Positions 25,656 through 63,147 of a stretch of 64,000 nucleotides of DNA are shown one piece after another. This stretch comes from Callorhinchus milii (taxonomy: Eukaryota). Position numbers and translations under genes: made by a program. Where the stretch lies: contig NW_024704771.1 of the NCBI RefSeq assembly GCF_018977255.1, forward strand, positions 3,968,001-4,032,000, written 5' to 3'. The notes under the pieces are model-generated. The model was not told the DNA's origin. It ran no database searches and saw only the letters and a program-made list of their open reading frames with translations. The number at the start of each line of letters is the position of its first letter. The stretch's first letter is position 1.

Positions 25656-26343
25656 AGTGAGGAGAGGAGCCCCCGACGCGGGGCTGGAACCCGCGACCCC
25701 CTGACTCAGAGGTAAGAGCCTCCGCCCGAGCCGGGCCGCCTGACGGCTCACAGCGAGACCCCCCATCGGCCGTGTCCGGCCACAGGGACCGACGCCGATT
25801 CGGCGTCGAATCGAAATGATAAATACTTATCATTTTCCCGTAACAATTTATCTTAAGTTACACCAACCAAACCCTGTAACGTACCAAGGTATAGTTATGC
25901 TGATTCCGATGAGGCATGTGATGGGCAACGTTCACCTGAGCAAACAACCAATTTATTATGAAGCTTGACAATCCCCCGGTTAGCTAACAAACGTAAGCAT
26001 TTCCAGCTGAACCCAAATAATAGCTTAACGTATTTCCGATTCCAACATTATGGATTGACGTTGTATCGAACATTTTATTTTGAGCAAAGTTGACGCGTTG
26101 GTTACAATCCGGACCCAAAACCAATAGAAACCTGATGTCAACAGGGAGCCCCGCACCCAGAGACCCGCCCGGTCTGGCCACGGCCCATACCCGCTCTGGT
26201 GCTGCAGGAGGGGGCTCTATCCTGAAGGGGCAAAACATCTACAGATCAGAGATCTGGTCCCGTGGAGATATCACTGGGACTTGGGTTAAAGTGGGTTAGA
26301 CAGAAGGCAGTGAATCACATGGAAATTGATCACTGTTAATGTG

Positions 26344-29300
26344 TTATAACCGGCAGATTCTCAGTTGCGCCGAGTTTTTCCCATCGTAATCATTACAGGG
26401 ACCAAAGAGAGGATAAAGTTTCTCAGTGAATATTTGGGTGAAAGTGTGGAGATGAGACATGTTGTCAGCGTTGTAAAATGACACCTGTCCCCCCTCATAG
26501 TCCAGGTACACCCCGATCTTCCCGGGTCTCACTGTCAGGGGCAGGCGGGTGGGAGGTGAGGTCAGAGCTTCATAGACCCGGCCCCACAGCCACACACCCC
26601 AGACCCCACCCTCTGTTGACCACGTGATTGGTTGTTTCCTGTTGACAGACTCTCTGGTCACTCCCACAGTCCACGCAGTCTTGTTGCCCACCTGCACTTC
26701 CCAGTAATGTCTCCCTGATGTGAAGCCCTCAGATCCCAGGACAATGAGAGATATAGTAAACCTCTTTGGGGTGTCAGGGACCGGCTGCCATTCGTCTCCA
26801 TCTCTCACACTGGTCAGGTCCTCAGACACGATGAGCGAGGGATGGGCTGTGTCAGGATCCAGAGTCAGGGCGGCCGGAGCTGAGAGAGAGAGAGAGAAAA
26901 ATAACATAAAGTGTAGTGAGACACTTGTCACCTCCCACCTGGATTACTCAAACACTCTCCATGCCGGTTTCCCCAGCGCCACTGTTCAAAAATCCCGATC
27001 ATTCAGAACTTTGCCCTCCACCTGGACCACACTCCGAACCCCCTTCTCACCATTTCTGGCCAGGCTCCACTGGCACCCTATCATCGAGTAGATCATCTTC
27101 AAGATCCTCACGCTCATGTTCAAATCCTTTCACTCCCTAATTCCTCCCTACCTCTCCGATCCCCTCACTCCCCAAACCACCACCCAGCGCCTCCTCTCGA
27201 CTGGCACTGGCCCTACTGCTCATCCCTTCCGCCATTGAAGGTCTACGCCTCAAACCTCTGGTAAACTCTCCCCCGATCTCTGCACCTTGCTCCCTCTTTT
27301 TCCCTTTTTTAAGTCCTGCTTTAAAACCTTCCTCTTCGACCACGCTAATGGTCCAACACCCCAGCTCAGAGTCAGGCTCCGCCACTGTTAAGCGCTCTGA
27401 GACTCTAACTTGCATGGAAGTCACTACGTAAGTGCAAGTTGTTGTAAAAAGCACGGATTGTGTACCACTGCTAGGCTGCCAGCAAAGGGCACCAGTGACT
27501 GGAGTCGCTGTTGGTGAACATGGTACTGTAAGAGTAAAGTAAGAGTAAAGAACCCTGGGGTGACATTTCCTTTCTAACAATGTTTAATTTGTTAGGATCC
27601 AGATGAATGTGAGACTATTCACGTACCTTCCGTCTGAGAATAGGAGACATTTACCTGGGCTGATAATGTCCAGCACCTCTCTCCAGGCTGTGTACTGTAC
27701 AAGTCCTTTGCACATCCCCACAGGCAGATCCCCCTCAGATAAAGACAGTTTAAAATCCTCATCACTGATCCTGAAATAAGAGACGCTCACATTATAAAGT
27801 GAAACTACACATTGTGTTTCATTTGTGAATTAAATTCTGGGGATATTTTGTGAAGATCATTTCGTACCTTCTCTTCCGAACAGCTTCCTCCTAATGAAAT
27901 AAAACACAGACAGATCTGAGCTCACACTGAGACGTTACATTGTAAATTCAGAATACACAGAATAGAATTCTACAGCAGTAAGGATTACTATTATTATTAT
28001 GTAACACCGTTCCCACCACGGACATCTCCCCAAAGCGCAGAGTGAGTTCTGCTTCCAGACGCGCACTCACACTCAATAACTCCAATAACTTTATATTTAT
28101 ATTGATATAAATGTAACAAAACATCGATATCATTAAAGATTAAATTAAACACAGCTACAAATCAAAACAGTTATAAATGTTAATATCAACAGTAACGGAA
28201 GCGAATATAAATATAAATAACTGACAAGAACTTTAATCCCAGGATAACCACGGCTGAAGTGTCCCTGGCTGTTGGCTTTGCGGGGACACTGCAGGCCTTG
28301 GGAGTGACTGATGTGGGTTTACTTCTATTCTGAGTGGCAGCAGCAGAGTCACTATCAGATTATACCAAATAATCAATAAAATCACTGCGCTGTTTAACAG
28401 TCAGACTTTGACTTTCTTCTCCAGACTGTGTGTAACTTTCACTGAACTAAATTGTAATTTCATCTTTACCTGCAGAAAAGTGAGAGCGTCTTTTTCCATC
28501 TGATTCTGTAACTCTGAGAGCTTTTTCTGAACAGAAGCTAAATTGTCCTGAATCTGTCGCAGATTTTTCTTCATTCGTTGCAATATCTCCTCCTCTCGCT
28601 TTCTGAGCTCTCGGATTACACGCTGCTCCCTGTCGGTGAGGCTCTGGTGCATTTTAGCAAACTCGGCCGTGACATTGTTCGCCAGACTGCTTGCCTGTTT
28701 CTGTAAAATAAGGCGTCAGCCATCACACTACACTGCGCACAGTAAAGAGAGACACACGACTGAGAGCCCAGACATCAGCCCCGACACAACTCACCTTAAC
28801 TTGTGAAATCTTTTCTTTCTGTTTAACTTCAGCTTCTAGAGCAGTGGCCTTCCTCTGTGTGAGAGAGTCTAAGGAGGGTTTCACTTTATCCTGGAATTAA
28901 TAAAAACAATATTAATTCTTGCATTTGATATAGTGCCTAATCACATCTTTAAGACGTCTCACAGTGCTTCACAGAATATACCGTTAAAGTGAGTTGACTA
29001 TATTTTGTGGGAGAAAAGCGGCAGCCGAATGCACGCAGTGTCCCACAAACATTCGTGGATTGAGTGAACATTTTAAAAATTATTTTGAAGGAATTATTTC
29101 CCCAGAAAAGCGATCTACCAATCGCTTACAACTGAGTTCCTACTTACTGCTACGTAAACATAGGAGAGTGGAGTAAGAAATCTTGCCCAACGTTTCCTCC
29201 TGCCGGGACTTGAATCCAGATCGCCTTACTTGCGACTTGAGTGGTCTTAACCACTAAACTACAGGACTCCACATTAAATTAAGTCGAATTAAATAGAAAC

Positions 29301-44782: not shown

Positions 44783-47700
44783 ATGGCTTCTCAACACCAG
44801 ACTGACAGTCTGACCGAGGAGTTAATTTGTCCGGTTTGTCTGGATCTCTTTACTGATCCCGTTATCCTGGATTGTAGCCACAGCTTCTGCCGCTCCTGTA
44901 TCACACGGTGCTGGGAAAAGCCGGGGCCGAGCTCCTGTCCTGTGTGTCAGGAGACTTTCCTGGAAAGGAACCTCAGGGTCAGTCGGGCCCTGGGGAATCT
45001 GTCAGAGAAAGCTCGGGAATTGAAGCTGACCCCGAACGTGACGGGAATTAAACGTCGCTGTGAGAAACACCAGAAACAACTGAGGCTGTTCTGTGAAACT
45101 GACAAGAAGTTGATCTGTTCCATCTGTAGAGATGCACAGGAACACAGAGATCACAGCTTCCTGCCCATTGACGAAGCTGCTGAAATCTACAAGGTAACAA
45201 TAACCCCGACACGGGATTCATTCTCTTCCACTTTATATAAACACATTTCCTCTGTGTGTTTGTGTTTAATTCCAGGATAAAGTGAACTCCTCCTTAGCTT
45301 CTCTCACACAGAGGAAGGCCGCGGCTCTGGAAGCTGAAGGGAAACAGAAAGAAAAGATTTCACAAGTGAAGGTAAGTTGTGTCGGGGCTGATGTCTGGGC
45401 TCTCAGTCGTGTGTCTCTCTTTACTGTGCGCAGTGTGATGTCTGACGCTTCATTTTGCAGAAACAGGCGGACAATCTGCAGAACCACATCACGGCTCAGT
45501 TTGCCAAAATGCACCAGAGCCTCACTGACAGAGAGCAGCGTGTGATCCGAGAGCTCAGAGAGCGAGAGGAGGAGATTTTACACCGAATGGAGAAAAATCT
45601 GCGAGAGATTCAGGACAAATTAGCTTCTGTTCAGCAAAAGCTCTCAGAGTTACAGAAACAGATGGAAAAAGACGCGCTCACCTTTCTGCAGGTAAAGAGG
45701 TGAAATGATAATTTAGTTCAGTAAAAGTTACACACAGTCTGGAGCAGAAAGTCAAAACCTGACTGTGAAAGAGCCCAGTGATTTTATTATCTGGTAAACT
45801 CCGGTGTGTGTCTGTAACCAGGTCCCACTTTGCGTTCTGTCTGTAAACCCACACGAACACCACTTTACAGTTGCTACGTGAACTTTCTGCATTTTGGAGA
45901 CAACATTGGGTGATAACATTCCTGTAATAATTACAGTAAACCGAGCTGTAGAATTCTCTAGTTTACAGTGTTGGGTCTCAGTGTGAGCTCAGATCTGTGT
46001 TTTGTTTCAATAGGAAGAAGAAGAAGCTCGGAATGGAAGGTATGAAATGTCTTTACCGAATATTCTTCTTTACCCCAGAATTTAACACACAAACCAAACA
46101 CAATGTGTAGTTTCACTTTATAATGTGCACGTCTCTTATTCCAGGATCAGTGATGAGGCTCTTACACTGTCACTATCTGAGGGGGATCTGCCTGTGGGGA
46201 TGTTTGAATGGCTTATACAGTACACAGTCTGGAGAGACACGAGACACAGCATCAGCCCAGGTACATGCTCCCATTCTCAGACTGAAGGTGTGTGAATATC
46301 TGACATTCACCTGGAACCTCCTGCTTACTCCTTACCGCTCTGCTCACAAATATCAAATGGCATTCTGTCTATCTGTGAGCAGGTCTCCCTCCTCGTCCTC
46401 CTTGACCTCTCTGCTGCCTTCAATACCGTTGACCACTTCATCCTCCTCCACCGCCTCTCCTCTCACCTCAACCTTCATGGTTCTGTCCTTCAATGGTTCA
46501 GATAATACCTCTCACACTGCCCTCCACTTAAATCTCCACGAACGGTTTCTCCTCGAGCCCCGGCACCGTTTCATGTGGCGTTCCTCCTCTGGTGTCCATG
46601 CTCCCCTCCTCTTGAATATTTATAAGCTCTCTTTTGGTGACTTTTGGTGACTTCATCTACAGGAATGGGTTCAACTGCCACATGTATGCAGAGGACACCC
46701 AACTCTTACCTCTTTGCCTCCACCATTGACTCCAGGACCACTGCTGTCCTGACAGAATGTCTGTCAGACATCAAGTCCTGGATGAGAACTAACTTTCAGT
46801 TGAATGTCAAGAAGATCGAGGCTCACTTGATTGGCTCCTGACAGTGCCACCACACCTCAGTTGCTGACAGTAAACCATCCAAGAAGGCCCCCTCCACCTT
46901 ACTAAGCCAGTCCGGAACCTTGGTACCTTGTTCGACCGTCAACTATTCTTTCTACCCCACATCCAAGCCATGAACTGCTCTGCCTTTCCCCACCTCCACA
47001 AGATCGCCCGGCTCTGTCACTGGCTCACACCACAGGACATTGAAACCCTCGTACATGCCTTCATAACATCCAGGCTCGACTATGCAAACTCATTGCTTGT
47101 GGGCCTCCCCAACTCCAACTCCTCCCTCCATAGGCTGCAGATCATCCAGAACTCTAATCCAGCCTGTGTCCTCTTCCTCACCAGGCTCTGTGACCCTATC
47201 ACCCCCATCCTCGCCCGACTCCACTGGTTTTCCATCACACAGAGGATACAGTTCAAGACCCTGGCCCTCACCGTCAAGGTCCTCACCTTCAAAGCCCTCC
47301 ATGGCAATGCTCCCCCCTACCTCTGCGACCTCCTAACACACCAATCAACCTGCCCGCTCCCTCCGCTCAGTGGGCTCTGGCTGGCTTCACGTCCCCTACT
47401 TCGCCCACGCGGGTGGGCCTTCCGTCACTGTGCCCCCATCCTCTGGAACTCCATCCTGCAGTCCCTCCGCCTCACCCTCTCCCTTGCCTCCTTCAAGACC
47501 CATCTCAAGACCTTCCCCTTCGACCATGCCAGCACCCTCCTTCCCCCCCCCCCCCCACGGCTCTCCACCCTCCCCGATCCCCAGCTCAGGTCCAAAACAT
47601 TGATTGTCCAGTGCCTTGGGACATCCTCCCGACGTGAAAGTCGCCATCCAAAGGCGAATACAGGACTCGTTATTCATATAGTACCGGGTGACCGACAGCA

Positions 47701-49253
47701 GATGGCACTAACATCAACAACAATTCCAGTCATTATCACCAGCGCCTTCTGGTGGCGGCGGTGCACGATCAGTGCTGTTTATCCGGTATATCCTGTTTAT
47801 CCTCAGGGCTCTGTCCTCGGTCCCCTCAGGCTGCCGAAACCCTCACCCACACATTCATCGCCTCAAGGCTCGATTTGTGGAGTCCTGTAGCTCAGTGGTT
47901 AGAGCACTCGCTTTGCAAGTGAGAGACCTGAGTTCAATCCCAGGCAGAGGGCCAAACCTTGGGCAAGTTTCCTTACTCCACACAGAGCCTAATAATAATC
48001 CCTCCAAAAGCAAAAACAGTAATAAATTGGTCATTTTCAATCCACGACTGTTTGTGGGACATTGCTGTGCGCAATTGGCTGCCGCGTTCGCCCACAAATA
48101 TACAATTCACTTTACAGTGTGTTCTGTGAAGCGCTTTGGGACGTCCTCCCGACGTGAAAAGCGCTATATCAAATGCAAGGATTATTATTATTATTATTAT
48201 CTATGGCTTTGCCCCCTCCTACCTCTCTGACCTGCTGACTCCCTGCCAACCTGCCCACTCCTTACATTCATCGGGCTCCGGCCTGCTCCATGACTCCCAC
48301 CCGACCCGCCCTACGATCGGTGGTGATGTAGGTGGCCCTACCATCAGCCGCTCTGCCCCCACACTCTGCCCCCACACTCCATTCCGCGGTCCCTTCGCCT
48401 CGCTTCCTTCCTTGCCTCCTTCAAGACCCTTCTCTTCGACCGTGCCTTTGGTCTCCCTCCCACCTCTCTGCCTTCCCTCACCTCTACAACCCCCCTCCCC
48501 CCATGCTTGGACCCCGACACCTGACTGTTCAGCGCTTTGGGACGTCCTCCCGACGTGAAAGGTACTCTATAAATGTAATTTTGTTGTATTGAGCAACTAA
48601 CCCTCTGATGTGGATCTTTCACCAGCTCACACACAGCCCCTAGTGCCCCTCGCTCCTGCAGCCCACCCCCCCGCTCCAAACCCCCCCCACTCACGTTGTA
48701 TTATTCTTCTCTCTCAGCTCCGGCCGCTCTGACTCTGGATCCTGACACAGCCCATCCCTCGCTCATCGTGTCTGAGGACCTGACCAGCGTGAGAGATGGA
48801 GACGAATGGCAGCCGGTCCCTGACACCCCGAAGAGGTTTAGTAAATCTCTCATCGTCCTGGGATCTGAGGGCTTCACATCAGGGAGACATTACTGGGAGG
48901 TGCAGGTGGGCAACAAGACTGCGTGGACTGTGGGAGTGACCAGAGAGTCTGTCAACAGGAAACAACCAATCAAGTGGTCAACAGAGGGTGGGGTCTGGGG
49001 GGTGGGGCTGGTGGGTGGGGGCTATTGTGCTATGACCTCCCCTCCCACCCGCCTGCCCCTGACAGTGGGACCCGGGAAAATCGGGGTGTACCTGGACTAT
49101 GAGGGGGGACAGGTGTCATTTTACAACGCTGACAACATGTCTCATCTCCACACTTCCACCCAAACTTTCACTGAGAAACTTTATCCTTACCTGTGTCCCT
49201 GTGTTAATGACGACGGGAAAAACTCGGAGCCGCTGAGAATGTGCCAGTTATAA
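44783..49253 (+). CDS. G8: TRIM RING-B-box-CC-PRY/SPRY
   Basis: Exons 44783-45193, 45276-45371, 45461-45691, 46014-46039 (26 bp, one extra GAA codon), 46145-46260, 48718-49253. Confidence 0.92.
46375..47640 (+). mobile_element. L2 LINE fragment in G8 intron 5 (continues at about 48200-48590)
   Basis: [33 protein letters not shown] 46928 ([15 protein letters not shown]...LHWF). Confidence 0.9.
47877..48200 (+). mobile_element. tRNA-Ala SINE, full length
   Basis: Family consensus. Confidence 0.9.
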
Positions 49254-49672
49254 CACATTGACAGTGATGTGGTTTTACCTCGCTTTCCGTGTGATTCACT
49301 GACTGTTGTTTAAGGGAATACAGTGGGGTGGGGGGGGATGAGGTGGGGGGGGTGAATTTCGGGAGAAGATCGCAAGCTCTGCCATGATTATGAGTCCAGA
49401 AGAGTATGAGAAAGCAGAAAGTGAACTGACTGTATGTTTTGCGGGTGAAACACGGCAGCCAATTGCATATACAGCATCCCACACAGTTGTGGATAAAGTG
49501 ATCAAATTTTTTTTGGAAGGAATTATTACCCCCTCGGAACAGCCACCTGCCAATCTGTAGCTCGTGTCTCAGTGAAATACCTCGGGGACCAGCTCTCTGA
49601 TCTATAGACTCTGAGCGTCAAGTTACTGTCAGTTTGTGTCTGGATCGTACCCAGTGTGTAAACTTTGCTCAC

Positions 49673-49678
49673 AATAAA
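49673..49678 (+). terminator. Probable poly(A) signal AATAAA of G8 in a conserved 3' module (homologs: G9 56772, G4 20303-20298, G5 26079-26074, G7 38349-38344)
   Basis: Same position within the paralogous module gtgtaaactttgctcacAATAAAgtgtctgatacaac, 250-600 bp past each stop. Confidence 0.6.
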
Positions 49679-49789
49679 GTGTCTGATACAACTTCAATCC
49701 AGGAGATCTTTCCTCCGGTCCCCCACACCCGGACCCACACGAGCTGGGCTTACTCCGCCTTTGATCCAGATTAAAGTCGGCTCAAAACA

Positions 49790-49816
49790 CAAAATACTGC
49801 AGATGCTGGAAATCTG

Positions 49817-49847
<31 letters not shown>

Positions 49848-51190
49848 CCTTGCATTTGATAGAGCGCTTTTCACGTCGGGAGGACGTCCCAAAGCGCTTC
49901 ACAGAACAAGAACAAGAACAGAAGTCGCTGGGAACACTCAGCGGGTCAGGCAGCATCTGCGGAGAAAGGAAAGTGAGTCAACATTTCGGGTCCGCGACCC
50001 TTCGTCAAAACTGGGGGCATGTTGGGAGGGAGAGGCCCTTAAGGGCTAACTAACAGAGAGGGGGGAGGCAGAGCAAGGAAGACAAAGGAGAAAATGGGGT
50101 AGAAGGCAGGAGATGATGGGTTAAAGAAGTGCTGATAATGCAGAATGGAGGGGGAAACTGCCATAAAATAGGCAGAGCAGAGAGAGAAAAGGTGTGCAGA
50201 TAAGTGAGGTGCTGCTCCTCGAGCTCGCGCTGTGGCTCATTGGAACAGCGCAGGAAGGAGACCGTGGATGGAGAGGTCAGAGCGCGAGTGGGAGGGAGAG
50301 TGGCAAGAACCCGGAAGCTCAGGGCTGTGCTCACGGACAGAAGGGAGGTGATCGGCAAATACGTCGCCCAATCCGCGTTTGGTCTCCCCAGTGTAGAGGA
50401 GATCACATCATGAGCAGCGAATGCTGTAAACTACATTGGTGGGAGTACATGTAAATCACTGTCTCATTTGAACTCTTGGTTCGGGCCCCTGGACAATAGT
50501 AATGGGGGGAGGAGGTGAAAGGCACGAGGTATTGCGTGGGAAGGTGCCGGGGGAGGAGGATAACTGTTGGTGGTGATGGAGGAATGAACCAGGGAGTCAC
50601 GGAGGGAATGGTGCCTTCGGAATGAGAGGGAAGGGGAGGGAAAGATATGCTTAGTGGTTGGATTAAGCTAGAGGTGCCGGAAATGGCGATGAATTATTGT
50701 TGGGATGTTGAGGCCGGTGGGATGGAAAGTGAGGACCAGGGAGGCCCTATCGCGGTTCTGGGAAGATGGGGAAGGAGTGAGGGCAGAGTTGCGGGAAATA
50801 GGGCGGACATGATCAAGAGCCCTGCCTACCACATGGATGGGAATCCTCGGTTGAGGAAAGAGGAAGACATTTCGGCTGCTCTGGTGTGAAAGGTGGGATC
50901 GTCAGAGCAGATGCGGAGGAGGCGGAGGACCTGGAAGAAAGGGAATGGAGTCCTTACAGGTGGCGGGGTGGGAGGAGGTGTAATCCAGGTAACTGAGGGA
51001 GTTGGTGGGCTTGTAAAAGGTATTGGTTGATAATCTATGCCACAAGATGGAAATGCTGAAGTCAAGGAAGGGAAAAACTGGGGATGGACCATGTGAAGGT
51101 TATGGATGGTTGGAAGGTGGAAGCGAAATTGGTGAATTTTTCCAGGTCACTGCGAGAGCAGGAAGTAGCCCCAACACAGTCGTCGATGTA
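49790..51190 (-). mobile_element. Penelope-like retroelement fragment (copy A)
   Basis: FQVLRLLRICSDDPTFHTRAAEMSSSFLNRGFP and GIY-YIG-like LYTGETKRGLGDVFADH on the minus strand; a SINE tail is inserted at 49818-49908. Confidence 0.75.
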
Positions 51191-51879
51191 TAAACGTCAG
51201 CAGTAACCTCCCCAATGCACACTTGGCTCATTCCCTCCTTGGGCCCTTCTCGAATCTCAAAGCTTATTTACTTGTGTGCCTCTCACCCACCCCCACCCCC
51301 TCCCCTCCCACCCAAACCTGCTGGGCTGGACAATCCTCATCCCCTCTCTCCGCCCCATTATCTGCAGCTAAACCTTTAGCGCCGTCTTGTGAACTATCTC
51401 TCCCTAATACCCTCAGGCTCCCTCATCCCCTATCTGTTCCTCAGCGACCCGCTCATTCCCTTTACTTGACAGGCACCGACCGGGCTCCTTCACGTCCCCG
51501 TACTGTTCAAGATCATGTGGCACTGTTCGAAAAGAGAAAGGAGTTTCTCTCCTATTGCCTTAGCCAAGACCCAAATAGAATTGCTCATTCATTTCATTAC
51601 TGTTTGTGGGGCGTGAGGCGTTTCACCTACAAAATATAGTACCACTCACTACACCTTATAGTGTATCCTGTGAAGCGCCTTGAGACGTCTCAACGATGTG
51701 ATAAGGCACTATATATATATCAAATGTAAAGGTTATTATTATGTTATTCTGCGCAATTGTGCTCCAAGTTCACTCTCAAAACAGTCACTACAATTCACAG
51801 TAAATCCTGTGAAGTTTTTTTTGGGATGTCCTCCTGACGTGAAACTAAATGCAAAGATTATTGTTATTAGCAACTATTT

Positions 51880-52610
51880 TTCTCCAAGTATCTCACGCTC
51901 TTTCGCTCTAACTTGCTTCCTTCCTCTCAACCTATAGCTTACAATAGGTTTAAACACCTCAACCTCCCTGGGCTCTCCCTCAGACTCACCAAACCAGTGC
52001 GCAACCTCGGCATCCGGTTCGACCAACTGTCCTTCTTCCCCCACAACCGGTCCCTGACCAGGACTGTGCTCTTCCACCTCCGCCACATTGCCCATCTCCG
52101 ACCATACCTTACCCCAAATGCACCCAATGCCCTCGTGCATGCACTTGTCATCTGCTTGGAGCACTCCTCACTGGTCTCCCCAGCTCCACCATTCACAAGA
52201 TCCGGCTCATTCAAAACTCTGCCGTCCGCATACTGACCCAGAACAAACTCAGTGCCCAAATCTCACCCGTACTGGCCCAGGCTCCGCTGGCTGCCCATCA
52301 CCGAACGGATCGACTTCAAGAGCCTCACACTTGTGTTCAAATCCATTCACTCCCTGGCACCTCCCTACATCTCCGACCTCCTCACTCCCCACTCCCACCG
52401 CCTGGCGCCTCCGCTCGACTGGCACCGGCCTCCTGCTCATCCCTCGCATCCTCTCGTCCCACCATCGGAGGTTGAGCTTTCAGCCACTACATCCCAGAAC
52501 TCTGGGACACTTTTCCTCAATCCCTCTGCCTTGCCCCCTCTTTCACGTCCCGCCTGAAAACATTCCTTTTGACCTGTACCCTGCGTGCAAGTTGTTGTTG
52601 TTGTTGTTGT
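51880..52610 (+). mobile_element. Degenerate L2 fragment (duplicate at about 58670-59395)
   Basis: PVRNLGIRFDQ, LFHLRHIAHLR, LRWLPITERIDFK motifs. Confidence 0.8.
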
Positions 52611-53543
52611 ACATATCTCTTACCACAAGCCCAAAACTGCAGACAGTAAAAACATGAACGCTTACCTTTCTGACCAGCAGAAATAATAATAATCATTATC
52701 CTTGTATTGTATATGACACCCTATCAAGTCTTTCGAGACATCTCAAAGCACTGCACAGAATATGCTGCAATAATAATAATCCTTGCACTTGATAGAGCGC
52801 TTTTCGCGTCTTCTCGACGTCTCAAAGCGCTTCACAGAATATACCGTAAAGTGAGTTGACTGTATATTTGTGGGTGTAAAGTGAATTGACTGTGTATTTT
52901 GTGAAACCAGACTATGTGCTAAGTTGCAAGGCTGTTAGAATTGTTTCCCAGGCTCAGAGAATTCAGTCACTTGGCACACACACTCAATGGTACAGTATTT
53001 TGCAGTTCCTCTGTCCAACGTCTGCCTCAGAGAGACCTAATGCACATAAGTGGGACTTGCGGATATTTGGCTAGATGGAATTTCTTCCGCATGGATAAAG
53101 CTTATCATTACAAATACACGTTAGGAGCACCGCAGACTCCGATCGCATTGTGTACCTCAGATGACAGAGGTTCATCTGCTTTTTTCCTTTCTCTCGATAT
53201 ATCCGGCTCTGACAAAGCCCTCGAGTACATCACAGAGAGTCTGTAATGTCACCTTTTTAACGAAAGTAAAATACACTGTTCAACTTTTCCTATTGTGGGT
53301 TGCTGCCTCTCAAATTCAGAGGAAGTGTGTGTGTGTGGGTGTGGGTGTTGGGGGAGGGGTTAGTGGGCGATGGTGGGGGTGAAATGTACCAAGAAGATAA
53401 AATATTCTCTCTTCAGCCTGTGCCGAATATTCTCCAGATTTAGATGAGCAGGGTGTGGTCTCCACCAGAGATTTTGCCCTCCAAATACACAGAAAAGATT
53501 TCATCGGAAAGCTAAGGCAGGTTGAATCAGGAAGTGCTCAGAA

Positions 53544-55781
53544 ATGTCTTCAAGAGGCCAGAAGCAGAAGTGGACGGAGGAGTTAAACTGTCCCATCTGT
53601 TTGGAGATCTTTACCGAGCCAGTTACCCTGAAGTGTGGCCACAACTTCTGCCGCTTCTGTATCACGCATAGCTGGAGCGAGCAGCTGAAAGGAACCTGTC
53701 CAGAATGTCGAGAGGTGAATTCAGGAAATCAGCTGAAACCAAATCGAACGCTAGTAAATCTGTCAAATGAAGCTCGGGAACTGAAATCACCGCAGAACAA
53801 AGAGATGCGTGACTGTGATAAACATTCGGAAGAACTGAAGCTGTTCTGTGAAACTGATAAGAAATTGATCTGCATCATGTGTCTTATTGATGCCGATGGA
53901 CAGAGCCACAAATCCCACGACTTAATGCTGATAGAGAAAGCGGCTGAGATCTACAAGGTAACAAGGAGCGGACTTTATAATGTGACTACTTCTCTCTTGT
54001 TGTTGCAGTGAGGCGTTTTAAAAAAAGATTTTGTTTTCTTTTGTTTCATCGATATTCTGGTTGCAGGACAAACTAAAATCGTCCTTTGATCCGGTTATCA
54101 AAAGAAACGAGGCTGTTCTGCTCACTGAATCGGAGCAAAAAGAGAAGATTTCAGCGCTGAAAGTAAGTTGTGACAATTATCAGTTGCGTTTCCCTTATTT
54201 ACCGGGTGATGTCTGGGCTCTGTCGTGTTCCTCTTTCTGTAAGTGCCCGTGGTGATGTCTGATACCTTGTTCTGCAGGAGCAGGTGAGCAGGCTGGCGAA
54301 GCATGTTACGGCTGAGTTTGGTAAGATGCACCAGAGCCTCTATGACAGAGAGCAGCGTGTAATCCGAGAGCTCAGACAGCGAGAGCAGGAGATTTTGCAA
54401 CGAATGGAGAAAAATCTGGGAGAGATTCGGGGCAGTTTAGTTTCCCTTCAACAAAAATTCTCAGAGTTAAAGAAACAGATGGAAAAGGACGCATTCACCT
54501 TTCTGCGGGTAAAGAAGTTAACATTGCTCTAAGTTTCTGCAAGCAGACGCTTTAGTTCAGTAAACTACTCACAGTCTGCAGCAGAAAATCAAAGTCTGAC
54601 TGTTAAATAGCTCAGTAAATACATTAACTAGTATAACCAGACCTTTGTAAGAAGATCTCACTTTATGTTCTGCCTATAACTCAGAACAGCACTTTGTAGT
54701 TGCTCTGTATCTGAACCTTCTGGCTTTGGAGACAACTGGCTTTCTGGCTTTGAAAAAGCTTTCTGGCATTGAGTGACTAATATTCTTGTAATAGTTAAAC
54801 TGTGCGCTGTAGAATTCTATTCTCGGTATCTAAGTTTGCAAGTTTGTGTCTCAGTCTGAGCTCAGATCTGTCTGTGTTTTATTTCAATTAGGATGAAAAT
54901 ACTCGGAAGAGAAGGTATGAAATGTTCATGACCAAATATCCCCAGAAATTTAATACACAAACCAAACGCAATGGGTAGTTTGACTTCATAATGTGAACGT
55001 CTCTTATTTCAGGGTCAGTGAGGAGTATGTTAAGCTGTCATTATCTGAGGGTGATCTGCCTGTGGGGATATACACAGGACCTGTACAGTACGCAGCCTGG
55101 AGAGACATGAGACACATCATTAGCCCAGGTAAATATCTCCCATTCTCAGACTGAAGGTGTATGAAGAGTCTTAGGATACTAACAGATTAACAGTAACGAT
55201 CCTCGCATTTAATATTGTGCGTTATCACATCTTCACGGCGTCTGAAAGCTCTTCACCGCATATACCGGAAACTGAATTGACTGTAGACTTTGTGAAAGAG
55301 ATATGACAGAGATATGACTGCCAATCATGGCAGTCGATTGTGCGCAGCCCTGTCCCACAAACAGTCATTGATTAAGTGACCTGATTCTTCCATTTATTTA
55401 AAATAAAATCTGACTCGATTATTATCTGCACCAAAAACTATCCGCCAATTGCCTTACGACCAGAATGCGAGCTACTGGTAAACAGAGGCAAGCAGAGGCG
55501 TGTATTGTAAGGAAACCTGCCTGAGGTTACACCTGCCCAGGAATCGAAACTGGAACCTCGCTTTGCGAGGCGAGTGCTCTAACCACGACTCTACAGGACT
55601 GCAGTGTTGTTAATGAACAGCTCAGCGCTCTTTACACTCGCAGTACCGGGTTATGGCAGTTGTCGCTGTGTGAACGTTTTCACCAACAGCGAGACGCCAG
55701 TCACACTGTCCCCAGCGCCCGCCTTCGCTCCTGCAGACCCCCCCCCACCGCTCCGTGACCCCCTCACTCCACTTTGTGTTA

Positions 55782-55816
<35 letters not shown>

Positions 55817-56351
55817 TCCGGCCGCTCTGACTCTGGATCCTGACACAGCCCATCCCGAGCTCATCCTGTCTGAGGACCGGACCAGTGTGAGACTCGGAGG
55901 CAAACTGCAGCAGCTCCTCGACACCCCGAAGAGGTTTAGTTACCATCCAGTTGTCCTGGGGTCTGAGGGCTTCACATCAGGGAGACATTACTGGGAGGTG
56001 CAGGTGGGCAACAAGACTGCGTGGAGTGTGGGAGTGACCAGAGAGTCTGTCAACAGGAAACAATCAATCACTTGGTCACCAGAGGGTGGGGTCTGGGGGG
56101 TGTGGCTGATGGACGGGGACTATGTGGCTCTGACCTCCCCTCCCACCCCCCTGCCCCTGACAGTGGGACCCGGGAAAATCGGGGTTTACCTGGACTATGA
56201 GGGGGGACAGGTGTCATTTTACAACGCTGACAACATGTCTCATCTCCACACTTCCACCCAAACTTTCACTGAGAAACTTTATCCTTACCTGTGTCCCTGT
56301 GTTAATGACGACGGGAAAAACTCGGAGCCGCTGAGAATGTGCCAGTTATAA
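53544..56351 (+). CDS. G9: TRIM RING-B-box-CC-PRY/SPRY (chimeric last exon)
   Basis: Exons 53544-53957, 54067-54162, 54278-54508, 54892-54914, 55013-55128, 55816-56351. Confidence 0.9.
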
Positions 56352-56887
56352 CACATTGACAGTGATGTGGTTTTACCTCGCTTTCCGTGTGATTCACTGA
56401 CTGTTGTTTAAGGGGATACAGGGGGGTGGGGGCGGATGAGGGTGGGGGGGGTGAATTTCGGGAGAAGATCGCAAGCTCTGCCATGATTGTGAGTCCAGAA
56501 GAGTATGAGAAAGCAGAAAGTGAACTGACTGTATGTTTTGCGGGTGAAACACGGCAGCCAATTGCATATACAGCATCCCACACAGTTGTGGATAAAGTGA
56601 TCAAATTTTTTTTGGAAGGAATTATTACCCCCTCGGAACAGCCACCTGCCAATCTGTAGCTCGTGTCTCAGTGAAATACCTCGGGGACCAGCTCTCTGAT
56701 CTATAGACTCTGAGCTTCAAGTTACTGTCAGTTTGTGTCTGGATCGTACCCAGTGTGTAAACTTTGCTCACAATAAAGTGTCTGATACAACTTCAATCCA
56801 GGAGATCTTTCCTCCGGTCCCCCACACCCGGACCCACACGAGCTGGGCTTACTCCGCCTTTGATCCAGATTAAAGTCGGCTCAAAAC

Positions 56888-57970
56888 ACAAAATACTGCA
56901 GATGCTGGAAATCTGGAACAATAATAATAATAATAATAATAATCCTTGCATTTGATAGAGCGCTTTTCACGTCGGGAGGACGTCCCAAAGCGCTTCACAG
57001 AACAAGAACAAGAACAGAAGTCGCTGGGAACACTCAGCGGGTCAGGCAGCATCTGCGGAGAAAGGAAAGTGAGTCAACATTTCGGGTCCGCGACCCTTCC
57101 GTCAAAACTGGGGGCATGTTGGGAGGGAGGTGATCGGCAAATACGTCGCCCAATCCGCGTTTGGTCTCCCCAGTGTAGAGGAGATCACATCATGAGCAGC
57201 GAATGCTGTAAACTACATTGGTGGGAGTACATGTAAATCACTGTCTCATTTGAACTCTTGGTTCGGGCCCCTGGACAATAGTAATGGGGGGAGGAGGTGA
57301 AAGGCACGAGGTATTGCGTGGGAAGGTGCCGGGGGAGGAGGATAACTGTTGGTGGTGATGGAGGAATGAACCAGGGAGTCACGGAGGGAATGGTGCCTTC
57401 GGAATGAGAGGGAAGGGGAGGGAAAGATATGCTTAGTGGTTGGATTAAGATAGAGGTGCCGGAAATGGCGAAGAATTATTGTTGGGATGTTGAGGCCGGT
57501 GGGATGGAAAGTGAGGACCAGGGAGGCCCTATCGCGGTTCTGGGAAGATGGGGAAGGAGTGAGGGCAGAGTTGCGGGAAATAGGGCGGACATGATCAAGG
57601 GCCCTGCCCACCACAGTGGATGGGAATCCTCGGTTGAGGAAAGAGGAAGACATTTCGGCTGCTCTGGTGTGAAAGGTGGGATCGTCAGAGCAGATGCGGA
57701 GGAGGCGGAGGACCTGGAAGAAAGGGAATGGAGTCCTTACAGGTGGCGGGGTGGGAGGAGGTGTAATCCAGGTAACTGAGGGAGTTGGTGGGCTTGTAAA
57801 AGGTATTGGTTGATAATCTATGCCACAAGATGGAAATGCTGAAGTCAAGGAAGGGAAAAACTGGGGATGGACCATGTGAAGGTTATGGATGGTTGGAAGG
57901 TGGAAGCGAAATTGGTGAATTTTTCCAGGTCACTGCGAGAGCAGGAAGTAGCCCCAACACAGTCGTCGAT
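56888..57970 (-). mobile_element. Penelope-like retroelement fragment (copy B, ~310 bp shorter)
   Basis: ORF 57246-57875: LRLLRICSD...LVLTFHPT...RDSLVHSS. Confidence 0.75.
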
Positions 57971-60331
57971 GTATAAACGTCAGCAGTAACCTCCCCAATG
58001 CACACTTGGCTCATTCCCTCCTTGGGCCCTTCTCGAACCTCAAAGCTTATTTACTTGTGTGCCTCTCACCCACCCCACCCCTCCCCTCCCACCCAAACCT
58101 GCTGGGCTGGACAATCCTCATCCCTCTCTCCGCCCCATTATCTGCAGCTAAACCTTCAGCGCCGTCTTGTGAACTATCTCTCCCTAATACCCTCAGGCTC
58201 CCTCATCCCCTATCTGTTCCTCAGCGACCCGCTCATTCCCTTTACTTGACAGGCACCGACCGGGCTCCTTCACGTCCCCGTACTGTTCAAGATCATGTGG
58301 CACTGTTCGAAAAGAGAAAGGAGTTTCTCTCCTATTGCCTTAGCCAAGACCCAAATAGAATTTCTCATTCATTTCATTACTGTTTGTGGGGCGTGAGGCG
58401 TTTCACCTACAAAATATAGTACCACTCACTACACCTTATAGTGTATCCTGTGAAGCGCCTTGAGACGTCTCAACGATGTGATAAGGCACTATATATATAT
58501 TATATCAAATGTAAAGGTTATTATTATGTTATTCCGCGCAATTGTGCTCCAAGTTCATCCTCAAAACAGTCACTACAATTCACAGTAAATTCTGTGAAGT
58601 TTTTTTTGGGATGTCCTCCTGACGTGAAACTAAATGCAAAGGTTATTGTTATTAGCAACTATTTTTCTCCAAGTATCTCACGCTCTTTCGCTCTAACTTG
58701 CTTCCTTCCTCTCAACCTATAGCTTACAATAGGTTTAAACACCTCAACCTCCCTGGGCTCTCCCTCAGACTCACCAAACCAGTGCGCAACCTCGGCATCC
58801 GGTTCGACCAACTGTCCTTCTTCCCCCACAACCGGTCCCTGACCAGGACTGTGCTCTTCCACCTCCGCCACATTGCCCATCTCCGACCATACCTTACCCC
58901 AAATGCACCCAATGCCCTCGTGCATGCACTTGTCATCTGCTTGGAGCACTCCTCACTGGTCTCCCCAGCTCCACCATTCACAAGATCCGGCTCATTCAAA
59001 ACTCTGCCGTCCGCATACTGACCCAGAACAAACTCAGTGCCCAAATCTCACCCGTACTGGCCCAGGCTCCGCTGGCTCCCCATCACCGAACGGATCGACT
59101 TCAAGAGCCTCACACTTGTGTTCAAATCCATTCACTCCCTGGCACCTCCCTACATCTCCGACCTCCTCACTCCCCACTCCCACCGCCTGGCGCCTCCGCT
59201 CGACTGGCACCGGCCTCCTGCTCATCCCTCGCATCCTCTCGTCCCACCATCGGAGGTTGAGCTTTCAGCCACTACATCCCAGAACTCTGGGACACTTTTC
59301 CTCAATCCCTCTGCCTTGCCCCCTCTTTCACGTCCCGCCTGAAAACATTCCTTTTGACCTGTACCCTGCGTGCAAGTTGTTGTTGTTGTTGTTGTACATA
59401 TCTCTTACCACAAACCCAAAACTGCAGACAGTAAAAACATGAACGCTTACCTTTCTGACCAGCAGAAATAATAATAATCATTATCCTTGTATTGTATATG
59501 ACACCCTATCAAGTCTTTCGAGACATCTCAAAGCACTGCACAGAATATGCTGCAATAATAATCATAATCCTTGCACTTGATAGAGCGCTTTTCGCGTCTT
59601 CTCGACGTCTCAAAGCGCTTCACAGAATATACCGTAAAGTGAGTTGACTGTATATTTGTGGGTGTAAAGTGAATTGACTGTGTATTTTGTGAAACCAGAC
59701 TATGTGCTAAGTTGCAAGGCTGTTAGAATTGTTTCCCAGGCTCAGAGAATTCAGTCACTTGGCACACACACTCAATGGTACAGTATTTTGCCGTTCCTCT
59801 GTCCAACGTCTGCCTCAGAGAGACCTAATGCACATAAGTGGGACTTGCGGATATTTGGCTAGATGGAGTTTCTTCCGCATGGATAAAGCTTATCATTACA
59901 AATACACGTTAGGAGCACCGCAGACTCCGATCGCATTGTGTACCTCAGATGACAGAGGTTCATCTGCTTTTTTCCTTTCTCTCGATATATCCGGCTCTGA
60001 CAAAGCCCTCGAGTACATCACAGAGAGTCTGTAATGTCACCTTTTTAACGAAAGTAAAATACACTGTTCAACTTTTCCTATTGTGGGTTGCTGCCTCTCA
60101 AATTCAGAGGAAGTGTGTGTGTGTGGGTGTGGGTGTTGGGGGAGGGGTTAGTGGGCGATGGTGGGGGTGAAATGTACCAAGAAGATAAAATATTCTCTCT
60201 TCAGCCTGTGCCGAATATTCTCCAGATTTAGATGAGCAGGGTGTGGTCTCCACCAGAGATTTTGCCCTCCAAATACACAGAAAAGATTTCATCGGAAAGC
60301 TAAGGCAGGTTGAATCAGGAAGTGCTCAGAA

Positions 60332-63147
60332 ATGTCTTCAAGAGGCCAGAAGCAGAAGTGGACGGAGGAGTTAAACTGTCCCATCTGTTTGGAGATCTTT
60401 ACCGAGCCAGTTACCCTGAAGTGTGGCCACAACTTCTGCCGCTTCTGTATCACGCATAGCTGGAGCGAGCAGCTGAAAGGAACCTGTCCAGAATGTCGAG
60501 AGGTGAATTCAGGAAATCAGCTGAAACCAAATCGAACGCTAGTAAATCTGTCAAATGAAGCTCGGGAACTGAAATCACCGCAGAACAAAGAGATGCGTGA
60601 CTGTGATAAACATTCGGAAGAACTGAAGCTGTTCTGTGAAACTGATAAGAAATTGATCTGCATCATGTGTCTTATTGATGCCGATGGACAGAGCCACAAA
60701 TCCCACGACTTAATGCTGATAGAGAAAGCGGCTGAGATCTACAAGGTAACAAGGAGCGGACTTTATAATGTGACTACTTCTCTCTTGTTGTTGCAGTGAG
60801 GCGTTTTAAAAAAAGATTTTGTTTTCTTTTGTTTCATCGATATTCTGGTTGCAGGACAAACTAAAATCGTCCTTTGATCCGGTTATCAAAAGAAACGAGG
60901 CTGTTCTGCTCACTGAATCGGAGCAAAAAGAGAAGATTTCAGCGCTGAAAGTAAGTTGTGACAATTATCAGTTGCGTTTCCCTTATTTACCGGGTGATGT
61001 CTGGGCTCTGTCGTGTTCCTCTTTCTGTAAGTGCCCGTGGTGATGTCTGATACCTTGTTCTGCAGGAGCAGGTGAGCAGGCTGGCGAAGCATGTTACGGC
61101 TGAGTTTGGTAAGATGCACCAGAGCCTCTATGACAGAGAGCAGCGTGTAATCCGAGAGCTCAGACAGCGAGAGCAGGAGATTTTGCAACGAATGGAGAAA
61201 AATCTGGGAGAGATTCGGGGCAGTTTAGTTTCCCTTCAACAAAAATTCTCAGAGTTAAAGAAACAGATGGAAAAGGACGCATTCACCTTTCTGCGGGTAA
61301 AGAAGTTAACATTGCTCTAAGTTTCTGCAAGCAGACGCTTTAGTTCAGTAAACTACTCACAGTCTGGAGCAGAAAATCAAAGTCTGACTGTTAAATAGCT
61401 CAGTAAATACATTAACTAGTATAACCAGACCTTTGTAAGAAGATCTCACTTTATGTTCTGCCTATAACTCAGAACAGCACTTTGTAGTTGCTCTGTATCT
61501 GAACCTTCTGGCTTTGGAGACAACTGGCTTTCTGGCTTTGAAAAAGCTTTCTGGCATTGAGTGACTAATATTCTTGTAATAGTTAAACTGTGCGCTGTAG
61601 AATTCTATTCTCGGTATCTAAGTTTGCAAGTTTGTGTCTCAGTCTGAGCTCAGATCTGTCTGTGTTTTATTTCAATTAGGATGAAAATACTCGGAAGAGA
61701 AGGTATGAAATGTTCATGACCAAATATCCCCAGAAATTTAATACACAAACCAAACGCAATGGGTAGTTTGACTTCATAATGTGAACGTCTCTTATTTCAG
61801 GGTCAGTGAGGAGTATGTTAAGCTGTCATTATCTGAGGGTGATCTGCCTGTGGGGATATACACAGGACCTGTACAGTACGCAGCCTGGAGAGACATGAGA
61901 CACATCATTAGCCCAGGTAAATATCTCCCATTCTCAGACTGAAGGTGTATGAAGAGTCTTAGGATACTAACAGATTAACAGTAACGATCCTCGCATTTAA
62001 TATTGTGCGTTATCACATCTTCACGGCGTCTGAAAGCTCTTCACCGCATATACCGGAAACTGAATTGACTGTAGACTTTGTGAAAGAGATATGACAGAGA
62101 TATGACTGCCAATCATGGCAGTCGATTGTGCGCAGCCCTGGCCCACAAACAGTCATTGATTAAGTGACCTGATTCTTCCATTTATTTAAAATAAAATCTG
62201 ACTCGATTATTATCTGCACCAAAAACTATCCGCCAATTGCCTTACGACCAGAATGCGAGCTACTGGTAAACAGAGGCAAGCAGAGGCGTGTATTGTAAGG
62301 AAACCTGCCTGAGGTTACACCCTGCCCAGGAATCGAAACTGGAACCTCGCTTTGCGAGGCGAGTGCTCTAACCACGACTCTACAGGACTGCAGTGTTGTT
62401 AATGAACAGCTCAGCGCTCTTTACACTCGCAGTACCGGGTTATGGCAGTTGTCGCTGTGTGAACGTTTTCACCAACAGCGAGACGCCAGTCACACTGTCC
62501 CAGCGCCCGCCTTCGCTCCTGCAGACCCCCCCCCCACCGCTCCGTGACCCCCTCACTCCACTTTGTGTTATTTTTCTTTCTCTCTCTCTCTCTCTCTCAC
62601 AGTTCCGGCCGCTCTGACTCTGGATCCTGACACAGCCCATCCCGAGCTCATCCTGTCTGAGGACCGGACCAGTGTGAGACTCGGAGGCAAACTGCAGCAG
62701 CTCCTCGACACCCCGAAGAGGTTTAGTTACCATCCAGTTGTCCTGGGGTCTGAGGGCTTCACATCAGGGAGACATTACTGGGAGGTGCAGGTGGGCAACA
62801 AGACTGAGTGGAGCGTGGGAGTGGTGAGGGAGTCTGTCAACAGGAAAGAATCAATTACATTGGCACCAGAGGGCGGAATCTGGGGTGTGTGGCTGCATAA
62901 TGGGGCCTATTGGGCTCTGACCTCCCCTCCCACCCGCCTGCCCCTGACAGTGAGACCCGGGAAGGTCGGGGTGTACCTGGACTATGAGGGGGGACAGGTG
63001 TCATTTTACAACGCTGACAACATATCCCATCTCCACACTTTCACCCACACTTTCGCTGAGACAGTTTATCCTCTCTTCTACACCGGTTTGAATAACAACA
63101 AAAAGAACTCGGAGCCACTGAGAATCTGCCGGTCATTAACACATTAA
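60332..63147 (+). CDS. G10: TRIM RING-B-box-CC-PRY/SPRY, near-identical to G9 up to mid exon 6
   Basis: Exons 60332-60745, 60855-60950, 61066-61296, 61680-61702, 61801-61916, 62603-63147. Exon 1-3 translations are identical to G9. Confidence 0.92.

Follow-up and report, generated by a model that had tools for sequence, protein, structure and literature searches.

A hybrid TRIM gene bridging the two copies of a tandem duplication in Callorhinchus milii, with a divergent patch in its PRY/SPRY exon

Results

TRIM genes of the locus

The window, i.e. the whole stretch of 64 kb (64,000 nucleotides) of Callorhinchus milii DNA that was analysed, contains 10 PRY/SPRY exons and is part of a larger cluster on contig C30. 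Three adjacent genes in this cluster are the subject of this report.

44783..49253, + strand: G8, an intact TRIM gene encoding 471 aa, the upstream parent locus (open model with GT-AG sites)
53544..56351, + strand: G9, an intact 6-exon RING/B-box/(coiled-coil)/PRY-SPRY TRIM gene encoding 471 aa (GT-AG model, open frame)
53544-53957, 54067-54162, 54278-54508, 54892-54914, 55013-55128 and 55816-56351, + strand: exons 1 to 6 of G9
60332..63147, + strand: G10, an intact TRIM gene with GT-AG introns, the downstream parent locus

In Pfam searches, a RING domain was matched above the cut-off on exon 1 of G9 (PF15227 and PF00097), and the B-box (PF00643) scored 35 bits vs. a cut-off of 24. SPRY (PF00622) was matched on the 3' part of the window sequence, and both PRY (PF13765) and SPRY (PF00622) scored on the database protein P0035, which is near-identical to G9. 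Exons 2-3 are the putative place of the coiled-coil, as judged from its expected position. Named proteins with near-identity are TRIMs of Callorhinchus milii.

For comparisons of exon 6 we used 44 distinct copies, comprising all those in C30:3,858,001-4,116,489 and the best matches elsewhere; the PRY/SPRY family exceeds this set, the best 40 of 253 candidates having been scored in the genome search. Codon statistics were based on 35 of the 44 copies; set aside were four broken copies and five distant ones, the latter including the three window genes most remote from the rest. A paralog at C30:4,053,959 is frameshifted, and in the one at C30:4,086,866 the end of the exon is broken near codon 161, with the remainder about 50 bases further on. 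Six PRY/SPRY proteins of C. milii in the databases (P0130, P0131, P0141 and P0151-P0153) are 72-88% identical to the nearest of the 44 copies; either haplotypes may differ in gene content, or the 44-copy set may be incomplete.

G9 is a hybrid of G10 and G8

Comparison of G9 with its two neighbours delimited the following segments.

55817..56019, + strand: 5' part of G9 exon 6 (PRY and the start of SPRY), with 0 differences to 62604-62806 of G10
55962..56019, + strand: presumed crossover interval, 58 bp with the same sequence in G8, G9 and G10 and in 14 of the 44 exon copies
56150..56351, + strand: 3' part of G9 exon 6, identical to G8 except for one silent difference at 56186
48922..56019, unstranded: duplication copy A (3' end of G8, intergenic DNA, G9 exons 1-5 and the 5' part of exon 6)
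56020..62806, unstranded: duplication copy B

Exons 1-5 of G9 and G10 showed no difference in 880 coding bases. Exon 6 of G9 starts at 55816, and its sole difference from G10 up to 56019 is this first base (an Ala/Val split codon). The coordinates and counts given for the exon in an earlier note, which had been made from the sequence alone, hold. G10-type sites end at 55961 and G8-type sites begin at 56020, which places the join within 55962-56019. In permutation tests, the G9-G10 tract was equalled in 0 of 500 permutations and the G8-G9 tract in 1 of 500. The 58-bp core has a pS of 0.07, compared with 0.10-0.19 in the adjoining segments.

G9 lies where the two copies of a 6.8-7.1 kb tandem duplication meet. 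Outside the region 56020-56149 (hereafter the patch), the alignment of copies A and B has 29 substitutions over 6644 bases (0.44%); apart from small gaps there is an indel of 315 bp, which are present near 50027-50341 in copy A and missing from copy B. The differences between the copies are unevenly spread, with very few in the gene body (53080-55791) and about 1% in the intergenic segment 50668-51857.

A duplication by unequal crossover leaves the head of the downstream gene joined to the tail of the upstream gene. G9 is a real hybrid of its neighbours, G10 in the 5' part and G8 in the 3' part. Unequal crossover in the invariant core, as proposed earlier, is supported by the junction of the tandem copies within the shared 58 bp, and from the geometry of this junction we consider such an event likely.

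Divergence of the patch between G8 and G9

Between the G10-like and the G8-like part of exon 6 lies a segment of high divergence.

56020..56149, + strand: patch of G9, unlike G8 at 15 nt in 11 codons
48922..49051, + strand: counterpart of the patch in G8, carrying the rare residues K85, T88, G101 and M105

The 11 codons are 70, 83, 85, 88, 96, 98, 99, 101, 103, 105 and 111 (exon numbering), and the residue is changed in all of them. The substitution density of the patch is not that of the flanks (11.5% vs. 0.44%; Fisher p about 2e-16, computed on a preliminary, approximate flank count of 26/6780). The statement that none of the changes is silent is correct per codon (11/11 replacements) but not per nucleotide. 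Pathway counting gave 13 steps that replace the residue and 2 that are silent (range of silent steps 1-3; pN/pS 2.3), and the change at 56114, within GGT/GAC, is silent whichever mutational route is assumed. The replacement excess between the two patches is not significant (Nd 13/98, Sd 2/34, Fisher p=0.35). Zero silent-only codons were found in 15 of 160 paralog pairs differing by 12-18 nt in the patch, and P was 0.024 under neutral simulation. The value for G8/G9 is in the tail, yet it is not extraordinary; given this tail position, the pair may truly have been under selection.

The patch had also been described as retaining a G8 backbone. In raw distance this does not hold, because four other paralogs (11, 13, 13 and 14 nt) are closer to G9 than G8 is (15 nt). 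In silent positions it does: no codon differs silently only, and G8 and G9 have in common a rare base at 56037 that occurs in 5 of the 44 copies. The common silent backbone and the rare base place both patches in the lineage of the G8 locus. G9 and G10 differ in the patch by 24 nt, with 7 silent-only codons, and are alike at 8 of the 15 patch sites.

The G8 residue and the G9 residue were counted among the 42 other exon copies, with the following result (G8 v G9): codon 70, 14 v 2; 83, 24 v 5; 85, 1 v 34; 88, 4 v 38; 96, 14 v 15; 98, 9 v 0; 99, 19 v 8; 101, 0 v 9; 103, 3 v 4; 105, 1 v 36; 111, 24 v 10. The rarer residue is in G8 at six codons (clearly at 85, 88, 101 and 105, narrowly at 96 and 103) and in G9 at five (70, 83, 98, 99 and 111). 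The polarity of the patch changes is mixed between the two genes.

Selection at patch codons and the predicted ligand pocket

Home-made M1a and M2a site models with naive Bayes assignment were applied to codons 67-111 of 33 copies, with G8 and G9 left out. M2a was better than M1a (LRT 55, omega 3.4), and codons 68, 70, 83, 96, 98, 99, 103 and 111 (above 0.95) and codon 90 were flagged. These 9 flagged codons of 44 include seven of the 11 in the patch (p=0.0003). Codons 26, 30, 42, 43 and 159 were flagged in other segments, where G8 and G9 were included. Site models are inflated by recombination, and the result is therefore taken as support, not proof. The pairwise pN/pS over the whole patch segment was 0.84 (35 copies), i.e. 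below 1, so that selection is visible in the site models alone. The strong positive selection that the earlier note had invoked is supported as a family-wide, long-term property of the patch codons; it is not supported for G9 since the duplication (p=0.35).

The best match to the G9 domain among solved structures is the PRYSPRY of TRIM21 (PDB 9ek5 and 2iwg; E 1e-48). Codons 70, 96 and 98 of G9 align with D355, W381 and W383 of TRIM21 (a numbering inferred from the spacing of 26 and 2 residues), which are listed together with F450 and D452 as Fc-pocket residues in the TRIM21 study PMC4670481. With three codons aligned to the ligand pocket, the patch probably lies on binding residues, as had been suggested. 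At the five positions G9 has Ser, Trp, Met, Val and Asp, so that 2/5 are kept; the signature of Fc binding is thus largely missing, and judged by it G9 is not a TRIM21-like Fc receptor. The proposal of a new binding surface stands as far as the combination of PRY and SPRY loops is new, and altered binding is a prediction. Judging by its domain family, G9 would be a putative ubiquitin-ligase receptor with a target range unlike that of either parent.

Origin of the patch states

Among the 42 other copies, exact matches were found for 9/11 G9 codons (expected 3.8) and 9/11 G8 codons (expected 3.6). In both genes this sharing is above chance (P about 0.001 each, relative to random changes of the same size), and the shared codons include the 3-nt pairs TGT/GTG and GGT/GAC. 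Four codons are private in this assembly: AGT70 and ATG98 in G9, AAG85 and GGC101 in G8.

Most patch sites are covered by exact tracts common to paralogs. G9 is identical to C30:4086866 over 44 bp with 5 patch sites (56122-56165; p=0.30 alone) and to C30:4065492 over 44 bp with 4 patch sites (56065-56108; p=0.08 alone), and G8 to C30:4103079 over 35 bp with 4 patch sites (p=0.13 alone; all by permutation). Searches of the assembly returned no donor for the whole G9 patch (best other copy 11 nt away; best 40 of 108 candidates), for the G8 patch (best 40 of 83 candidates) or for the 3' half of G10, which is 83-85% identical to every other copy (best 40 of 213 candidates). G4, a paralog in the window that had been named as a candidate, is 17 nt away and was ruled out as the donor.

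Two features bear on exchange with G5, another gene in the window.

48719..49000, + strand: part of G8 exon 6 that resembles G5 (282 bp with 8 differences; the 253 bp after it have 32)
26342..26879, - strand: G5 exon 6, of which database versions carry the Met-Asp-Gly of G9 at codons 98-100, not Trp-Gly-Arg

The first 282 bp of G8 exon 6 show 8 differences from G5, compared with 15-43 for 15 other copies. This tract reaches into the patch, and the preceding intron is not G5-like. G8 is also identical to C30:4086866 over 125 bp (0/500 permutations). To judge from these tracts, G8 is itself a mosaic. G8 and G5 are oppositely oriented and 22 kb apart, and the exchange between them is limited to the exon.

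Six database proteins (P0110, P0115-P0118 and P0121) equal G5 except for W98M, G99D and R100G. The resulting M98-D99-G100 is the motif of G9 and is absent from all other copies of the 44 examined. The G5 variant may be an allele, possibly formed by allelic micro-conversion, or it may be a mix-up in an older assembly. P0130, which is 86% identical to the nearest copy in the assembly, carries S70; with no close copy here, it indicates that donors may be missing from the assembled haplotype. G10 shares rare bases with the paralog L017 on either side of the core (55918-9 on one side; 56038, 56039 and 56042 on the other), which suggests that the two halves of G10 are original partners.

Explanations of the G9 exon

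We regard it as probable that G9 is an unequal-crossover hybrid, the patch of which is pre-existing paralog or allele variation brought in by short conversion tracts and kept by diversifying selection. Unequal crossing-over in the 58-bp stretch common to many paralogs would have generated the hybrid at the duplication junction; variants from paralogs or alleles would have reached G8 as well as G9 through short gene-conversion tracts and been retained under long-term diversifying selection acting on the predicted ligand pocket. Conversion is the likely carrier of the patch variation, as far as codon and tract sharing can indicate. Against this explanation, repeated mutation at hypervariable codons can mimic codon sharing. 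Of the two origins considered earlier for the patch, import by conversion fits the data and a burst of new G9 mutations does not, because both G8 and G9 have a share in the changes and most of the codon states occur in paralogs.

It is unlikely that the G9 patch was rebuilt after the duplication by new point mutations under very strong positive selection. The silent backbone common to G8 and G9 agrees with new mutations, as do the zero silent-only codons (P=0.024, neutral), the position of the changes on family-wide selected codons and the failure to find a donor among the best 40 of 108 candidates. However, new mutations would require a replacement divergence of 13% where the flanks have 0.44%, about 30-fold; the codon states match paralogs above chance, the family-majority residue at 85, 88 and 105 is in G9 and the rare one in G8, and the pairwise dN/dS is not significant (p=0.35).

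A history with two crossovers, in which the patch was original to the G10 lineage, the join in G9 fell at about 56150 and the 3' half of G10 was replaced later, is improbable as well. It would account for the 8/15 patch sites at which G9 equals G10 and for the distance of the G10 3' half (83-85%) from every other copy (best 40 of 213), but not for the 24 nt and 7 silent-only codons between the G9 and G10 patches, the rare bases flanking the core on its two sides that G10 has in common with L017, or the rare 56037 base common to G8 and G9.

Independent records of G9

The UniRef protein P0035 contains G9 exon 1 and, apart from a single substitution (N139D), all of the hybrid exon 6. Because of N139D, P0035 was not read from the window sequence; it may still come from the same animal. 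Contigs were checked in four sequencing runs from two studies, one of which runs could be the source of the window itself; 32 of 479 pieces were listed, and they were compared with 56020-56420 only. Among the matches listed, exact patch contigs were found in X1 (56069-56185), X2 (56079-56140) and X6 (56079-56155), and a contig in X8 (56079-56169) had 2 letters other than those of the G9 patch. The nearest other assembly copies over the X1, X2, X6 and X8 spans are 11, 7, 8 and 9 bases off. Patch matches with 2 other letters occurred in X2 and X8, where the nearest other copy in the assembly is 5 and 9 bases away, and such contigs imply that close patch variants exist elsewhere.

Only short contigs, none spanning the junction or G8-G9-G10, were among the matches listed, and the protein searches returned no other versions of G8 or G10, a weak result. 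In X6 and X8, patch contigs are present and 56356-56420 is uncovered; a gap in contigs proves nothing. X1 is only guessed to be RNA, and no RNA record of the patch was found.

That two haplotypes were assembled in tandem and the G9 exon is a misjoin is very unlikely: a copy divergence of 0.44% is of the order that alleles could show, and the listed matches and protein searches yielded neither a record spanning the array nor, for what little this weighs, G8 or G10, but P0035 has the whole hybrid exon 6, one residue off (be it from the same animal or another), and X1, X2 and X6, from two studies, have exact patch contigs.

Within the preferred explanation (crossover with imported patch variation), two timings were considered. 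Unequal crossover draws its two copies from different homologues; the 0.44% may therefore be an allelic distance, and the patch an older allele difference at the G8 locus. That the two patch versions were already distinct G8-locus alleles when the crossover joined two haplotypes has a slightly better than even chance, and that they diverged after the duplication a slightly poorer one. The close patch variants in X2 and X8 lean slightly towards alleles older than the crossover; conversion after the duplication fits the data equally.

A second array in the cluster

A similar arrangement was found 80 kb away.

C30:4,092,000-4,115,000: second tandem array (L070-L072), three genes with a period of about 11 kb

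The middle gene of this array is a hybrid: in codons 12-45 it agrees with the downstream gene at 14 sites, in codons 67-123 with the upstream gene at 11, and at one late site with the downstream gene again. It has bases of its own at 10 sites, five of them within codons 94-102, where it carries its own patch. The unit of the middle gene differs from the next at 17 of 3530 bases upstream of exon 6 and at 21 of 536 in exon 6; the introns and tails adjoining exon 6 differ by about 2%. With the switch between neighbours across the same core, the anatomy seen in G9 arose at least twice, and the G9 pattern is not unique. In the middle gene, codon 176 of this exon is a stop, and short exon-1 fragments are located near C30:4,099,318 and 4,110,074. 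Another tandem duplication (C30:3,877,345-3,901,188) has a period of about 12 kb and copies 97-98% identical; no PRY/SPRY exon was found within it.

Discussion

G9 is a clear new example of an already known process. For the NLR-B30.2 genes of zebrafish, conversion tracts in the B30.2 exon have been proposed to recombine paralog replacements, and positive selection on exposed residues is described in the same source (10.1101/027151). Short conversion within B30.2 and positive selection are common to that system and G9; the zebrafish genes have an NLR scaffold in a teleost and were described by family statistics, whereas G9 is a chimaera TRIM with two junctions located base by base. G9 thus provides a base-level case of crossover and short conversion recombining binding loops, as proposed earlier from fish B30.2 family statistics. 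The literature searched, with most subscription journals and supplements outside the search, contained no account of this TRIM cluster.

The finTRIMs are an expanded TRIM family with positive selection in the variable loops of B30.2 and a GARD breakpoint in B30.2; they were called teleost-specific, a counterpart being absent from the then-incomplete elephant shark genome (PMC2657112). The likeness of the G9 cluster to finTRIMs in family expansion, B30.2 selection and breakpoint carries no claim of orthology. Young primate TRIM genes and the rodent Trim5 cluster are described as showing segmental duplication, copy-number variation, possible conversion and selection in target-recognition regions (PMC3228819, PMC6677749); these mammalian clusters have tested antiviral relatives, whereas G9 is known from sequence alone. 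In the chicken BG region, tandem immune genes vary in copy number and hybrids are attributed to unequal crossing-over or deletion (PMC4046983). Unlike G9, BG genes encode butyrophilin-like membrane proteins, and their join is not inside a PRY/SPRY exon.

A patch with only amino-acid-changing differences between young duplicates is, by itself, no evidence of recent selection. G9 and G10 have the same exons 1-5 and PRY loops, with all differences confined to the SPRY half, and for G8 and G9 the situation is reversed, so that the three genes form a natural domain-swap set, usable for asking which loops set target specificity.

Micro-conversion occurs in MHC genes. It is also mentioned in 10.1101/027151. 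A speculative extension, which we hold only tentatively and think rather doubtful, is that the cluster is a germ-line loop-shuffling system that provides every individual with a personal repertoire of cytosolic receptors, with MHC-like polymorphism, in the oldest lineage of jawed vertebrates. The 58-bp core, invariant down to its silent sites in 14 of the 44 copies, would then be a reusable hinge at which the two halves of the binding surface, PRY and SPRY, are swapped, and micro-conversion would rewrite pocket residues.

A butyrophilin-like gene on contig C30 (L062, near 782,400; P0147 and P0148) also ends in a closely related PRY/SPRY exon, which points to one exon pool for TRIM and butyrophilin genes.
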